Shown here: one piece after another, positions 721-49,711 of the stretch
Layout of the letters: each line of letters starts with the position of its first letter
How positions within the stretch are numbered: position 1 is the stretch's first letter
Origin: Armatimonadota bacterium
Lineage (GTDB): Bacteria > Armatimonadota > UBA5829 > DSUL01
Length of the DNA stretch: 49,711 nucleotides
Assembly (NCBI GenBank): GCA_039811685.1
Contig: JBDHZC010000011.1
Coordinates: 1-49,711, forward strand
Direction: 5' to 3'
Program-made: the position numbers and the translations under genes
Notes under the pieces: generated by a model
Told to the model about the DNA's origin: nothing
What the model saw: only the letters and a program-made list of their open reading frames with translations
Databases searched by the model: none

Positions 721-851
721 TGATACTGCGGTGGTCAAAAGCCTCTGGGAATGACCGGTCCTGAATGCAGAAGCCGCCAAAACATAATGACATAACGGGA
801 ATGGCACACTCCTCAGGCCTCTCGTCCTCTACCGAACTCAATTCCCGCAGC
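721..851. repeat. Family C palindrome (GCTGCGGGAAT...ATTCCCGCAGC) interrupted by an IS110 remnant
   Basis: Removing 732-796 and one GG restores a near copy of 46010-46076. Confidence 0.9.
732..796 (-). mobile_element. 65-nt left-end remnant of the IS110 element
   Basis: Reverse complement equals 48132-48196 except the first two nt (GT vs TA). Flanked by CC on both sides on the minus strand (730-731, 797-798). Confidence 0.92.
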
Positions 852-44495: not shown

Positions 44496-44703
44496 TTTTA
44501 CCCCTCCAGGTTTCCGAATCTGGAGGCATTCAAGCGTTTGCACCCATCCAGACAGCAGTTCCGGCAGCGCAAACTGCTCAAGGGGCTATGACACCACGTC
44601 CGGTTATTGTGCGGGGTGTCCGGAGTGCTGGCGGAAATTTCGGTGTCCAGTCACGCGACACGCTGCGCAGGCTTGCCATTCCCGCGGCATCTGGAAGCGA
44701 AAA
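44496..44703. repeat. Composite repeat element (A hairpin ... C right arm plus degenerate inverted A)
   Basis: TTTTACCCCTCCAGGTTTCCGAATCTGGAGG (44496-44526); GCCATTCCCGCGGCATCTGGAAGCGAAA (44675-44703). Confidence 0.75.
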
Positions 44704-44706
44704 ATC

Positions 44707-44735
44707 TTGACGGCGGAGATAGCCTGTGCTAGGAT
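44707..44735 (+). promoter_or_regulatory. Putative sigma70 promoter for the CsgG-like gene
   Basis: TTGACG-N17-TAGGAT with TG extension. Confidence 0.55.
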
Positions 44736-44858
44736 GCCGGGATAATTCCAACAGATAGTGGAACATGGATTTATAGGCTTCTTCGGCGGCGCAAGGAGTG
44801 CTGAAATACAAAAAAGCCAGGCGTCTTGCCGAACCTTTGTTACAAACGGATTTGATTT

Positions 44859-45878
44859 ATGACACGTAGTCTGTGCACCAGCAAGTTAGTTTTGTTCCTC
44901 GGTCTTATCGTCGCGCTGACGGTTTCGCCATTAGCAGCGAAAGACGACAGCGAAAAAGACGTAAAACCGGCGCCAAAGCCAGTCTATACCGGACCAAAAA
45001 AGAGAATCGCCGTGATGCCGATGACCGCAGAAGGCAAGACAGGCGATCTGTTTGGGCAGTGGGCGAACATTTACAAGTCTCAAAACAGAGTCTATACATC
45101 CGAGGATGTCGGGAACAGGTTAACGGAAATGCTTACGACAGCCCTGTTCGACACCGGCCGTTTTGTCATTTTGGAGCGTCAGAACATCGGCGATATACGT
45201 GACGAGATAGCAATTGGCGCAGAGCTTGGCAATGAAAAGACCGCCGTTAAGAAGGGTAGCGTTCTGGGCGCTCAGATCCTGGTGCGCGCAGCCGTTACCG
45301 AGTTCGAGAATACATCGAGCGGTCAAGGCGGGGGACTTAGTATCAAAGGCTTCAAGATCGGCGGCGGCAAAGGCAAAGCCAAGGTCGTTATAGATGTGCG
45401 CATGTACGACGCCGGTAGTTCGCGAGTATTGTACAACGCTTCGGCCGACGGGGATTCTTCCAGTCAGGGGGGATCGATCGCGTTGAACATTGGGAGCTTC
45501 GGAGTTGGGGCTGGGGCCGAAAAGAACGAGCCGATAGAGCGCGCTACGCGCAACGCCATCGAAAAGGCAGTGATGTTCATTGTCGCGAAAATGGACGCTG
45601 TACCCTGGGAAGGCCGCATTGCCACAGTCAAGGAGGACGGTACCATCTATCTCAACCGTGGCTCCGATGACGGTTTGAAGGTGGGTGACAGGTTGATTGT
45701 CTACAAAGCAGGCGAGCCCATTACGGACCCTGAGACCGACGAAATCATTGGTCGTGAAGAGGATGTTCGAATCGGCGCGACGTCCGTTTCCTGGGTTGAC
45801 AAACGCCTGTCTCGGATCAAGCCAATAGCGGGCAACAAGATCGAGAAGAACTACGTCGTGAAACTGGCTTCCGAGTAG
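44859..45878 (+). CDS. CsgG/HfaB family protein with FlgT-C-like domain
   Basis: KKRIAV, MLTTALFDTGRFVILER, AVTEF, IYLNRGSDDGLKVGD. Confidence 0.85.
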   Translation: MTRSLCTSKLVLFLGLIVALTVSPLAAKDDSEKDVKPAPKPVYTGPKKRIAVMPMTAEGKTGDLFGQWANIYKSQNRVYTSEDVGNRLTEMLTTALFDTGRFVILERQNIGDIRDEIAIGAELGNEKTAVKKGSVLGAQILVRAAVTEFENTSSGQGGGLSIKGFKIGGGKGKAKVVIDVRMYDAGSSRVLYNASADGDSSSQGGSIALNIGSFGVGAGAEKNEPIERATRNAIEKAVMFIVAKMDAVPWEGRIATVKEDGTIYLNRGSDDGLKVGDRLIVYKAGEPITDPETDEIIGREEDVRIGATSVSWVDKRLSRIKPIAGNKIEKNYVVKLASE

Positions 45879-45976
45879 CGGTTTTGTGGCGTGGGAATGA
45901 CAGATTTCTCACGCGTTTAGTCCTCCGCCTACTCTGATTGCCGCAGCCTGTCCGGTGGCTGCGGCAAGTGCCCGGC

Positions 45977-46078
45977 TTTCATTCCTCCAGCTCGTAAAGG
46001 CGCGCGACTTGATGCTGCGGGAATGGCACACTCCTCATGCCCCTCGTCCTCCACTGACCTCAATTCCCGCAGCATCTG
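45977..46078. repeat. Half A motif plus intact family C palindrome (unoccupied IS110 target)
   Basis: TTTCATTCCTCCAG at 45977; perfect 14-bp stem GATGCTGCGGGAAT (46011-46024) / ATTCCCGCAGCATC (46063-46076). Confidence 0.9.
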
Positions 46079-46087
46079 AAATCCGTG

Positions 46088-46510
46088 CTATCGGGGCACC
46101 GCCTGGTACACCAGTACTGCCATGACTACGTGTAAGAGCAGATAGCCTCCGACGACCCACAACCACGCGCCTGACGGGCGCAGATCACCCACTTTGAGCT
46201 TCGGATCCAGTGCGCGCATGAGCGCAAAGAGAAGAATGTAGCCGTACAAGCGCAGGAACCACGCCATGAAGACGGCTCCAATAACTGCCTTGTATACGAT
46301 GACGTGTATGGGCGATGACCAGCTATGTTTGATGAAAGCAATTGGCTTGTTCATGACGCCGGCGCTGCACGCTAACAGGAAAACAAGACAAACAGCTCCA
46401 CTGAGCAAGCCTTCGAAACGATACGGGAAGTCGCGCTGGTGAACAAGTGCCACCATACCGGCAAGAACCAGGATCGCAAAGACAAGTAGAGCGGCAGTAG
46501 AGTACGACAT
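46088..46510 (-). CDS. Small 4-TM hypothetical membrane protein
   Basis: ATG 46510 (MSYSTAALL) after AGGGG; four hydrophobic segments; lies between repeats. Confidence 0.7.
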   Translation of the reverse strand: MSYSTAALLVFAILVLAGMVALVHQRDFPYRFEGLLSGAVCLVFLLACSAGVMNKPIAFIKHSWSSPIHVIVYKAVIGAVFMAWFLRLYGYILLFALMRALDPKLKVGDLRPSGAWLWVVGGYLLLHVVMAVLVYQAVPR

Positions 46511-46631
46511 TGCTAGCCCCTGACGCCATATCCGTGATGGCACTCCTGGTTGCAGACACCTCGACACAATTCATCCCAGCGGCGGGCCGCTGGGCCGCAG
46601 TACATGCGAAAAGCCGTAATCTGCGCTAGAC

Positions 46632-46856
46632 TTCCATCCCTCCAGGTTTCCCCAACCTGGAGGCCAAACGCCGTACTCATAGTCTCACCTACCGCTGAGT
46701 GCGTCAAGGCTGAGGCTTTGGTCCTGCGGGCTTCTTGATGCTGCGGGAATGCCGCACTCCTCATGTCTCCTGGAACCTCAGGCTCGAAAACGGCCGAACC
46801 TCCTCGCCCGCGTTTTAGATCCCGCCAGGTTTCCCAACCTGGAGGCATCGAAATGC
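46632..46856. repeat. A hairpin - C left arm - A hairpin cluster
   Basis: A at 46632-46663 and 46819-46845; GATGCTGCGGGAATGCCGCACTCCTCATG from 46737. Confidence 0.85.
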
Positions 46857-46862
46857 TTCCTC

Positions 46863-47945
46863 TCATTTGCGCGTCAGCGCCTCCATCAGCCGTGGGTTAA
46901 AGAACAGGCGCTCGCGCCCCACCTTCGTGCCTGCGAGAATGCCGATGCGCTCGAGTTCGCGCAGGTATTCGGATGCCGTGTTCCTGCGGGCAATGCCCGC
47001 GGCCTCCACCAGCCCAATGCGGGTGTAGGGTTGCGAGAACACCATATCCAACAGCTCCCGGCTGTACCCCTTCCGCATTCCGGACCTGGCCATTTCGGCG
47101 GCCTCATCTATGGCTCTGCGAACGGAGCGCAGCATGGCCCTTGTCATAACGGCGGTTTCCTCAATCGCCCGGAGCATGTACAGAATCCATTCCTCCCACG
47201 CATCCGCCTCCGTCACCGCCCGCAGGCGCTCATAATACTCGGACTTGCTGGGGACGATGTACCAGCTCAGGTACAGCACAGGCATCTCCAGCATTCCGCT
47301 CTGCAGCAAATAGAGGATGTTCAACACACGCCCCGTGCGCCCGTTGCCATCGGGAAACGGATGGATGGCCTCGAACTGGCGATGTCCGGCAGCCATCTTG
47401 ATGAGAGGATCAATGCCGTCGCCAGCCGCGAGCCATCCGCACATGACGTTCAGCATGTCGAGGATCCGATCACGCCCAATGGGCGGCGTGTACACCACCT
47501 CGCCCGTCCTGTCGTTGACGATCCGGCATCCCTCGCCGGAACGGACGTCCGTGTCTGCTCCCTTTATGCGACGGGCGAGATCAATGAGCAGCGACGGGCG
47601 GATGGGGCGTCCCTCGCGCAGATCCCGGTACCCCGCCCACAGCGCCTCGCCGTAACGCAACACCTCACGGGTGCGCGGGTCGGCCGCCTCGGGGCGCTGA
47701 TCAAATGCCCGGTAGAGGGCATCGTTGGTGGTAACGACATTCTCGATCTCCGAAGACGCGCGCGCCTCCTGCAGCAGGATGGCGCGAAGCAGCACCGCCT
47801 GGTTCGGGACGAGATCGCCGCCCGCATTCAACTCGGCCAACACCCGGTTTGCGGGTATGGCCGCCTTCAGTGTTCGGGCGGTCTCCAGCCTGTCCGCCGC
47901 GGGAATCGGAGGCAGATAGTTGTAGGGCCGGTTACGGTCGAACAT
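46863..47945 (-). CDS. Fic/DOC family adenylyltransferase with C-terminal HTH
   Basis: HPFPDGNGRTGR catalytic motif; SSEIEN inhibitory motif; GAGG RBS before ATG 47945. Confidence 0.93.
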   Translation of the reverse strand: MFDRNRPYNYLPPIPAADRLETARTLKAAIPANRVLAELNAGGDLVPNQAVLLRAILLQEARASSEIENVVTTNDALYRAFDQRPEAADPRTREVLRYGEALWAGYRDLREGRPIRPSLLIDLARRIKGADTDVRSGEGCRIVNDRTGEVVYTPPIGRDRILDMLNVMCGWLAAGDGIDPLIKMAAGHRQFEAIHPFPDGNGRTGRVLNILYLLQSGMLEMPVLYLSWYIVPSKSEYYERLRAVTEADAWEEWILYMLRAIEETAVMTRAMLRSVRRAIDEAAEMARSGMRKGYSRELLDMVFSQPYTRIGLVEAAGIARRNTASEYLRELERIGILAGTKVGRERLFFNPRLMEALTRK

Positions 47946-48148
47946 GCACGCACCTCGTGGGTTTTGCCCCATTATACACGCGCAGAGCCCAAGACGCGTG
48001 CATATTATGGCCATCCGCACGCGCTGCGTGCATTTTTTTCATCCCTCCAGGTTTCCCAACCTAGAGGTTCTGTATGCTGCGGGAATATCGGTTTCCAGTC
48101 ATCCATCACGCTGGTGGGCCTCGTCATTCCCTATATGTCATTATGTTT

Positions 48149-48298
48149 TGGCGGCTTCTGCATTCAGGACCGGTCATTCCCAGAGGCTTTTGACCACCCG
48201 CTGCGGTCTGTCCGTTTGCAGATGAGTGTGAGTACCGATGGAGAGTTGTGCTTCGAGCACCGATATAGGGACGCATCACGCCTCGAGAGCAGCCGCCA
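48149..48298 (+). ncRNA. IS110 bridge RNA (target-binding and donor-binding loops)
   Basis: Closing stem TGGCGGCT/AGCCGCCA; LTG 48173-48181, RTG 48200-48206, LDG ~48240-48247, RDG 48263-48269. Confidence 0.88.
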
Positions 48299-48312
48299 GG
48301 AAAGGGAAGACG

Positions 48313-49494
48313 ATGAACTTCGTTGGGATTGATTGGGCAGACCAGACCCACCGTTTGTGCATACTGGGTGATGAAGGGCAGCGCCTGGAGAGTTTCGAGA
48401 TCGCTCATGGCCGTAAGGGCTTTGAAGCCGCCCACAGCAGGATCGCCAGGCACGGCACACCTGATGCCACAAGGATCGCCATCGAGACCAAGGACTCGCT
48501 GCTGGTGGACTTTCTTGTTGAGCTTGGCTACGCGCTGTATTTCGTGAACCCCAAACAGACGGATCGCTTTCGCGACCGCCACAGGATGAGCCGCTCCAAG
48601 TCTGACGCCTTCGACGCTTTCGTCCTGGCTGACGCGGTCAGGACGGATCATCAGTTGTTCAATGCGCTGTCGCCGCTAGACGAGACGAGCCTGCAACTCA
48701 GGGTCCTCACACGTTCGAGGGAGGGGCTTGTTGGCAGGAAAGTTGCGGTGCACAACGAGATCACCTCACATCTGAAACGCTACTTTCCGGTGGCGAGTGG
48801 GCTGTTCGGCGGACTAGACAACGCCGCGGCCATCGCTTTCCTGCTACAGTATCCGACCTTGGAGCAGGCAAAGACAGTATCGCAGGCCAGGATCACTGCC
48901 CTCCTGATCAAGGAAGCCAGGGTCACACCGGCCATTGCCGTCAGGCACGCCACCAGGGCACGCGCGCTTCTCTCGGAGCCCCAGGCTGCAGCCAGCTCAT
49001 CTGTTACCCGAGCCTATCCGGTAGCGGTACAGTCACTGCTACGTCAGTTGAAAAGCATTCTGGCTGAACTGGAAGCGCTGGACCGGGAGATCGCCTCGAT
49101 CTACGACCACCATCCGAACAAAGAGCTCCTTCAATCTTTGCCCGGGGTGGCCGAGACGCTGGGCCCCGTGCTCGCAGCTGAGCTGGGGACAGACGTTACC
49201 CGCTTTGTCAATCTGAGAGGCCTGAAGGCTTTTGCCGGAACCAGCCCTGTCACCGTGCAAAGCGGCAAGCATCGCAGCGTCCACATCCGGCGCGCGTGCA
49301 ACCAGCACCTCAGACAAGCGTTACACATGGCCAGCCTTGTAGCTGTGAGAATAGCCCCCTGGGCGAGAGAACTTTTCGACCGGCTGCGCAACGAGGGCAA
49401 GACCTACGGCCGCGCCCTGAGAGCTGTAGGCGAGCAACTCCTGGAAATACTCTATGTCCTTCTCACGCGCCGGACACGCTATGACGAGGGCTAG
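48313..49494 (+). CDS. IS110 family recombinase (DEDD RuvC-like plus Transposase_20)
   Basis: FVGIDWA, IAIE, KSDAFDA, LQSLPGV, FAGTSPVTVQSGK; AAGGGAAG RBS. Confidence 0.96.
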   Translation: MNFVGIDWADQTHRLCILGDEGQRLESFEIAHGRKGFEAAHSRIARHGTPDATRIAIETKDSLLVDFLVELGYALYFVNPKQTDRFRDRHRMSRSKSDAFDAFVLADAVRTDHQLFNALSPLDETSLQLRVLTRSREGLVGRKVAVHNEITSHLKRYFPVASGLFGGLDNAAAIAFLLQYPTLEQAKTVSQARITALLIKEARVTPAIAVRHATRARALLSEPQAAASSSVTRAYPVAVQSLLRQLKSILAELEALDREIASIYDHHPNKELLQSLPGVAETLGPVLAAELGTDVTRFVNLRGLKAFAGTSPVTVQSGKHRSVHIRRACNQHLRQALHMASLVAVRIAPWARELFDRLRNEGKTYGRALRAVGEQLLEILYVLLTRRTRYDEG

Positions 49495-49604
49495 CATATG
49501 CGGATGAAGGCGTTGCACGGCAGCATAATCGCAGCCCGAGTTTGACATAGAGAGTCCGCAGCATCTGAGGTTGGGAAATCTGGAGGCGTGAAAATATTCG
49601 ATCT

Positions 49605-49711
49605 TCACGGCAGGGAGTCCCCTCCAGGCAGGTCTGCCCAGCGAGGAGTGTACACCTGCGTGCGGCCGCTCTTCAGCCAGCGCACCATCACGCTTTGCGG
49701 GGGAACGGTGG
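49605..49711 (-). CDS. 3' end of a minus-strand gene entering from outside the window
   Basis: Open frame ...VMVRWLKSGRTQVYTPRWADLPGGDSLP* stops 10 nt from the repeat end. Confidence 0.35.
   Translation of the reverse strand, partial: TVPPQSVMVRWLKSGRTQVYTPRWADLPGGDSLP

Follow-up and report, generated by a model that had tools for sequence, protein, structure and literature searches.

The insertion sequence and its boundaries

The stretch of DNA analyzed here (the window) is the entire contig 11 of an Armatimonadota bacterium, 49,711 nucleotides long (GenBank assembly GCA_039811685.1, JBDHZC010000011.1), from a genome of 3.42 Mb in 15 contigs that is 97% complete. Close to its end lies an element with a single recombinase gene, a left end of 183 nt and a right end of 61 nt (Table 1). 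We consider it very likely that this tract, 48130-49555, is an intact insertion sequence (IS) of the IS110 group, in which a DEDD/serine recombinase is accompanied by a bridge RNA of ca. 150 nt contained in the left end. The strongest support for the bridge-RNA reading is the natural covariation between the guides and the flanking sequences of related elements.

The limits of the element could be established because the same genome contains empty target sites, which place it at 48130-49555 with one shared CC and no target duplication. The left junction reads GTCATTC-CC-TATAT (48123-48136) and the right one AGAGAGT-CC-GCAGC (49549-49562), the CC core being present at 48130-31 and again at 49556-57, while the empty sites have only one. 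The exact 14-mer target (GTCATTCCCGCAGC) is found empty at eight other places in the genome, vs. 0.025 expected, and at 16 when one mismatch is allowed. A subterminal inverted repeat of 6 bp, TGACAT (49543-48) and ATGTCA (48135-48140), lies just inside the ends. Besides the full-length copy, three fragments were detected. One, in contig 5 (23685-23955, locus L002/L099), is 100% identical to 48123-48393 (positions 1-271 of the interval 48123-49562), has the left flank GTCATTC and holds the complete bridge-RNA gene, as judged by a covariance model match, plus the first ca. 27 codons of the recombinase. Another, in contig 1, corresponds to the last 274 nt of the element with the right flank GCAGC; these two are 99-100% identical to the full copy. 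The third, in the window itself (730-803, minus strand), is an older left-end piece (97% identical) followed by GCAGT.

The recombinase, the only gene with a PF01548 match found in the genome, gave clear scores with PF01548 (E 2.4e-35, 122.1 bits, cut-off 29), PF02371 (E 1.2e-18, 67.7 bits, cut-off 21.3) and the NCBIfam model NF033542 "IS110 family RNA-guided transposase" (179.8 bits, cut-off 140). The solved structures related to it by sequence in a PDB search were the transposases of ISCro4 and IS621 only. In a hidden Markov model alignment with the IS621 chain 8wt6_A, residues D7, E58, D98, D101 and S317-G318 fall on D11, E60, D102, D105 and S241-G242, the catalytic residues of IS621 as numbered in PMC11208158. 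The catalytic D, E, D, D and S-G were invariant across a three-sequence alignment.

Table 1. Features of the element and of its insertion site, in window coordinates
Feature	Position	Strand	Remarks
5' arm GCTGCGGGAAT of a ca. 61-nt palindromic repeat	48076..48086	+	Perfect inverted copy of target positions 4-14; the 3' arm is the insertion target
Left target half (LT), GTCATTC	48123..48129	+	Identical flank at the contig-5 fragment
Insertion sequence	48130..49555	+	1426 bp with a single CC core; boundaries from empty sites GTCATTC-CC-GCAGC elsewhere in the genome
Right donor half (RD), TATAT	48132..48136	+	
Extended -10 motif TGtCATTAT	48136..48144	+	Overlaps the subterminal repeat ATGTCA
Predicted bridge RNA body	48149..48298	+	Closing stem P1, TGGCGGCT (48149-56) / AGCCGCCA (48291-98), kept in relatives
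Target-binding arm	48157..48222	+	66 nt; TCTGCA/TGCAGA, GGAC (48167-70) / GTCC (48210-13), distal hairpin 48182-48198
Left target guide (LTG), GTCATTCCC	48173..48181	+	Sense of LT + core, 9/9; would pair with the bottom strand
Right target guide (RTG), GCTGCGG (48200-06) + handshake TC	48200..48208	+	Reverse complement of CC-GCAGC, 7/7
Left donor guide (LDG), GGAGAGTT	48240..48247	+	Against LD + core AGAGAGT-C (AGAGAGTC), 6 identities + 2 wobble-compatible
Donor-loop distal hairpin GTGCT-TCG-AGCAC	48248..48260	+	One pair is C-G in 4/7 and U-A in 3/7 sequences, i.e., compensatory
Right donor guide (RDG), ATATAGG (48263-69) + handshake GA	48263..48271	+	Reverse complement of CC-TATAT, 7/7
Recombinase gene	48313..49494	+	393 aa; DEDD RuvC-like domain, long linker, Tnp domain with catalytic serine
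-35 motif TTGACA	49542..49547	+	Overlaps the subterminal repeat TGACAT; conserved in 6/6 elements examined
Left donor half (LD), AGAGAGT	49549..49555	+	
Right core copy CC + right target half (RT), GCAGC	49556..49562	+	Identical flank at the contig-1 right-end fragment

Guides read against target and donor

Four short tracts of the left end can be read directly against the junctions, and they follow a regular two-loop layout, in which each loop has on its 5' side the same sense as the top strand of LT or LD and is antisense to RT or RD on its 3' side, all four guides containing the core. The junctions, guides and stems listed in an earlier note on this DNA, which was made from the sequence alone, were all recovered letter by letter at the positions given there. 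The least perfect guide is LDG, with two departures from AGAGAGTC (positions 1 and 8), each of which would give a G-T or U-G wobble on pairing with the bottom strand. When the 181-nt left end was shuffled 200,000 times by mononucleotides, the rates for single matches were 0.00057 (9-mer), 0.021, 0.0088 and 0.073 (8-mer with wobbles), and the four matches together never appeared (0/200,000).

In IS621, once strands have been exchanged, the guide bases located just 3' of RTG and RDG form pairs with the other DNA at its position 7, the so-called handshake (PMC11208158). Here, the handshake GA of RDG pairs with target positions 7 and 6 (C and T), and because of this the match of RDG to the integrated left junction TCCCTATAT reaches 9/9. 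In the handshake of RTG (UC), the C fits donor position 6 (G), and in three relatives (L007, L008 and L020) the corresponding bases are AC, which fit both donor positions.

The earlier note had also set the CC core of this element apart from the CT of IS621. The CC is confirmed at the junctions, yet it is common to the whole clade. Among the right junctions that could be located in metagenome loci, about 12 read CC and about 14 CT, and RDG ends in GG at loci with a CC core and in AG at those with CT. Since junctions and donor-guide ends agree, CC is to be seen as a clade-wide core encoded in the guides and no oddity of this copy. A text search, figures and full supplements aside, found no paper pairing "CC core" with "bridge RNA", and we do not claim the CC core as a novelty.

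Covariation of guides and flanks among relatives

Homologues were present in 3 of 40 related genomes, and a scan of metagenomes added 80 loci; a contig scan with the single protein had given only two loci, one of them useful. Relatives with 61-69% protein identity have almost the same RNA scaffold, and their loop sequences change together with the flanks. Thus, L006 has LTG TAAGTTCCC next to the left flank and core TTAGTTC-CC, and L021 has LTG TCCGTTCCC next to GCCGTTC-CC, both with RTG GCTGCGG and core plus right flank CC-GCAGC. At the other sites both halves of the target are different: L007 and L010 (two sites in one genome) have LTG AGAAATCCC and L020 has LTG GGAAATCCC, in both cases with the left flank and core CGAAATC-CC, RTG GTTTCGG and CC-GAAAC on the right. 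The donor side covaries as well, LDG of L007 (AGGGAGTC) matching its own end AGGGAGT-C at 8/8 positions, so that the two wobbles of the window become plain pairs.

For a wider comparison we used a covariance model (R1) built from seven RNAs and covering 48149-48279, which is narrow (effective sequence number 1.23). Of the 80 metagenome loci, R1 matched 41 at E<=1 (25 at E<0.01), always on the recombinase strand and upstream of its open reading frame (ORF); there were 0 matches in three actinobacterial plasmid IS110 elements with ca. 35% identity. Guide columns were then taken from the R1 alignment and the ends of the elements located through their donor guides with at most one mismatch; before counting, partial matches and duplicates were removed, together with loci in which the ends could not be located. 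The longest common run between guide and own junction was at least 7 in 11 of 16 loci for LTG and in 12 of 17 for RTG, against 1 of 238 and 2 of 272 when guides were paired with the junctions of other loci.

The RNA scaffold

An alignment of seven sequences was scored against a 25-pair structure drawn from those same sequences. In this alignment 96% of the cells were paired, four pairs had changed on both sides in a compensatory way, and the covariation score was reached by none of 500 shuffles; slid controls paired at most 47% of the cells. The closing stem P1 retains 7-8 of its 8 pairs in all seven sequences, for example as TGGCAG/CTGCCA in L020 vs. TGGCGG/CCGCCA in the window. The minimum-free-energy fold contains the closing stem and both arms.

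Two details of the earlier description need to be modified. The GACCG/CGGTC inner stem proposed for the target loop is present in the letters, but it is not kept in relatives (the GACCA/CGGAC of L007 cannot form it) and it would tie up part of RTG; the conserved inner stem is GGAC/GTCC. The RNA was also described as compact, and it is indeed shorter than the 177 nt of the IS621 RNA, although only because it is devoid of the 5' stem-loop, the target arm being 66 vs. 65 nt. Some relatives, e.g., L006, have ca. 150 extra nt where that 5' stem-loop would be.

A side observation concerns one relative (L019:1067-1162, 68% protein identity), in which the donor loop is kept and the recombinase gene is open, but other sequence, unrelated to it, has taken the place of the target-binding loop. 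Here nature provides a copy devoid of the target loop.

A putative promoter at the joined ends

When the right end is joined to the left end, TTGACA and TGnCATTAT come to lie 17 nt apart, and this arrangement was found in 6/6 elements by the criteria of the scanning tool. No sigma-70-like site was detected in the linear sequence 47950-49711. Judging from the position of the promoter motif, transcripts would begin around 48150, at the base of the closing stem.

The stretch of the element was found in 14 DNA runs from nine studies, covering sludge, wastewater, bioreactor and soil metagenomes, and it is covered in part by low-depth contigs from four RNA-library runs. The RNA-library contigs are unstranded and lack defined ends, and the parts that they leave uncovered carry no meaning. 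One of them, 262 nt long with a depth of 2.1, covers exactly 48123-48377, which is at most a weak hint of bridge RNA expression.

Comparison with known systems

Bridge RNAs have been predicted in thousands of IS110 elements, including 85.7% of the IS110-group entries in ISfinder, and the general features described for them are guides of 8-9 nt and 4-7 nt with the core in every guide, a long left and a short right end in the IS110 group and, in IS621, a promoter at the junction (PMC11208160). Our element resembles IS621 of Escherichia coli (Durrant et al. 2024, PMC11208160; Hiraizumi et al. 2024, PMC11208158) in many of these aspects: the DEDD RuvC-like and Tnp domains with five aligned catalytic residues, an RNA in the left end with the target loop followed by the donor loop, 3' sides antisense over 4-7 nt, the core in all four guides, a target arm of nearly the same length, a promoter rebuilt at the circle junction and a target within a palindromic repeat. 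The sequences are nevertheless distant, since a single-sequence search aligns only the Tnp domain strongly (phmmer E 3e-19). The protein, with 393 aa vs. a chain of 328 residues, is about 65 residues longer and by the alignment coordinates has ca. 85 extra residues between RuvC and Tnp. The core is CC instead of CT, RTG has 7 nt instead of 4, an 8-bp stem closes both loops in an RNA that has no 5' stem-loop, and only one of the two handshake bases of the target loop fits.

The best match in the PDB was ISCro4 / IS622 (10.1101/2025.05.14.653916; PDB 9t56), with E 1.4e-19, or 4.3e-23 with a profile. It shares the 14-nt, 7-2-5 recognition logic with handshake guides and differs in its CT core, its enterobacterial host and its shorter protein (341-residue chain). 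With regard to the target, the closest parallel is ISPpu10 of Pseudomonas putida, an IS110-group element that inserts into repetitive extragenic palindromes (REP), where the stem-loop of the target adds specificity (10.64898/2026.03.19.712850). The core of ISPpu10 is CT, however, and its target lies beside a 5' stem-loop, whereas the target in the window is one arm of the palindrome. The IS1111 / seekRNA elements, including IS1111-attC, belong to the same recombinase superfamily and are likewise RNA-guided and aimed at structured repeats. They carry their RNA in a long right end and have subterminal inverted repeats of 7-17 bp (PMC11208160), in contrast to the left-end RNA and short right end of our element.

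The matches listed from the text of the supplements of Durrant et al. include no copy of the target 14-mer or of the donor 14-mer. At least two Armatimonadota recombinases are contained in these supplements, with sequences different from that of the window.

Proposed mechanism and alternative explanations

We interpret the element as an addition to the known bridge-recombinase system with no new mechanism. By analogy with IS621, excision would join the right end to the left end and thereby create the TTGACA-17-TGnCATTAT promoter, which would fire at about 48150. The transcript would fold into two internal loops inside one closing stem, the first reading the 14-nt target GTCATTC-CC-GCAGC, with its 5' side paired to the bottom strand and its 3' side to the top strand, and the second reading the joined ends of the element itself, AGAGAGT-CC-TATAT. 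The recombinase would then exchange strands at the shared CC. The natural target would be the 3' arm of a ca. 61-nt REP-like palindrome repeated in the genome. That this is an IS110-group element with a two-loop bridge RNA of the IS621 type, as originally proposed, is borne out by the protein family, catalytic residues, end lengths, empty sites, junction promoter and covariation. The description as an "intact ortholog" holds at the level of sequence (open ORF, catalytic residues, promoter motif) and goes no further than that. Transcription, binding of the RNA by the protein, present-day activity and retargetability would be expected from the similarity to known systems, and that the element is reprogrammable we infer from the natural retargeting seen in its relatives.

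Several observations speak against this interpretation or weaken it. The stability of the single-sequence fold is that of shuffled sequences (z = +0.25), so that folding energy alone is uninformative, and a scan of 47900-49711 with Rfam 15 at E<=1 gave no relevant family, only two chance matches to microRNA and snoRNA models. The first handshake base of RTG (U) is unpaired with donor position 7 (T). Among the relatives, L013, with a frameshifted ORF, has RTG CCTGCGG next to the flank CC-GCTTG, and L008, in which the 5' end of the ORF is broken, has its left flank one base out of register. In the wider comparison the run between guide and own junction stayed below 7 in 5/16 and 5/17 loci; some of these low scores are probably due to mislocated right ends, and they are still counted as misses. 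The 262-nt RNA-library contig may be DNA carry-over or derive from the fragment copy in contig 5. Lastly, there is one full-length copy while eight perfect targets stay empty, and the circle junction was not found in the assembly, which makes any present activity putative.

These last facts are also what gives weight to another explanation, namely that we are dealing with a genuine IS110 element with a bridge-RNA leader that is no longer mobile, a single resident copy whose three fragments are decay products; to call it an intact, reprogrammable ortholog would then be saying too much. The two wobbles that LDG needs against the real end and the frameshift of the closest relative (93% identity) would fit as well. 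However, the ORF is open with all the catalytic residues, the promoter motif is intact, and the near identity of the contig-5 and contig-1 fragments to the full copy argues for recent events; moreover, repeats may be collapsed in an assembly, and rare circles leave no trace in it. We take loss of mobility to be unlikely, albeit an alternative to be kept seriously in mind. It is very improbable, on the other hand, that the guide-like matches are non-functional, either by chance or as a piece of the target repeat captured in the left end. The target belongs to a repeated palindrome, so GCTGCGG also appears in the flank at 48076, and the fold energy is unremarkable; yet the shuffles never gave the four matches together, the matches are located within the internal loops of a scaffold that is conserved, and in relatives with other targets the guides change together with the flanks, which brings this explanation close to refuted. 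Hardly any credit can be given to an arrangement of the IS1111 / seekRNA type, in which the guide RNA would be encoded 3' of the recombinase gene and the structure in the left end would be just a leader. The 6-bp subterminal inverted repeat would agree with it, but a right end of 61 nt vs. a left end of 183 nt is the layout of the IS110 group (PMC11208160), and all four guides are in the left end, whereas no structured RNA carrying guide matches can be seen in 49495-49555.

The element adds to the bridge recombinases a well-documented orthologue from a little-studied phylum, one that departs from the studied systems in its CC core, its 7-nt RTG and its scaffold without 5' stem-loop. Its relatives form a small natural retargeting series on one scaffold, useful for choosing orthologues and for asking how far the core varies. 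The understanding of the mechanism is unchanged by it.

Target repeats and partial copies

The empty sites are the 3' arms of ca. 61-nt palindromic intergenic repeats, GCTGCGGGAAT-N38-ATTCCCGCAGC, which cluster between genes about 1 kb long. These repeats are one of three intergenic kinds that recur in the window at 44503-48136 and elsewhere in the genome (contig 1, 221.6-224.1 kb; contig 3, 183.6-187.4 kb; contig 5, 4.6-6.2 kb). Apart from the palindromes with arms GCTGCGGGAAT / ATTCCCGCAGC, there is a 24-nt hairpin, CCTCCAGGTT-N4-AACCTGGAGG, with 42 matches counting both strands, and there are palindromes with arms TTTCGGGATTT / AAATCCCGAAA. Genes of ca. 1 kb bounded by repeats could suggest an integron, but in this 97%-complete genome the best score with the integron-integrase model TIGR02249 was 86.6 bits vs. 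a cut-off of 265. The ends of the repeats also lack the GTT core that is usual in the attC consensus. A REP system with its own REP-associated tyrosine transposase (RAYT) was likewise discarded, as there was no PF01797 match in the genome. With no integron integrase above the cut-off and no RAYT transposase, we call the repeats REP-like and name no mobilizer.

Within the close clade, target positions 4-14 recur upstream as a perfect inverted copy at 5/6 insertion sites. The exception is L010, which together with L007 (genome G004) represents two copies of one element at the same 14-nt target, the copy at the exceptional site being frameshifted. Because the L010 site has no upstream inverted arm, the hairpin is not strictly required for insertion. 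Nor does the palindrome hold as a general rule, an inverted copy with at most two mismatches being found upstream at only 7/18 sites of the wider family. Repeat arms of the types ...ATTCC|CGCAGC and ...AAATCC|CGAAAC are both present in the genome of the window. It is conceivable, although we regard it as rather improbable, that the recombinase of this Armatimonadota clade recognizes a hairpin in addition to a sequence and crosses over at the center of the 3' arm, that relatives have switched between these two repeat families by guide changes alone, and that the copy in contig 5 is a possible natural product of a half match. If this were true, the contig-5 event would give rise to a guide-RNA gene on its own that could act in trans.

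The ends of two fragments deserve mention in their own right. The solo left end in contig 5 stops exactly after GGAGAGT, part of an internal site GGAGAGTT (window 48387-48394) whose match to the donor guide (8/8) is closer than that of the real right end, and the fragment abuts another palindromic repeat, of the TTTCGGGATTT type. It may be a product of recombination at a donor half-site, in line with 10.64898/2026.08.31.748434 and 10.64898/2026.08.14.744561, or a coincidence. The fragment at 730-803 breaks off at an internal CC, with the right half of a target repeat, GCAGT, following immediately, and looks like a deletion from the internal CC to the right junction, through the recombinase or through 2-nt microhomology.

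The gene adjoining the element (46863-48020, minus strand) encodes a Fic-family protein with Fic_N, Fic and SoFic-like C-terminal domains, and the insertion lies ca. 110-185 nt upstream of its start, within the repeat that precedes it.

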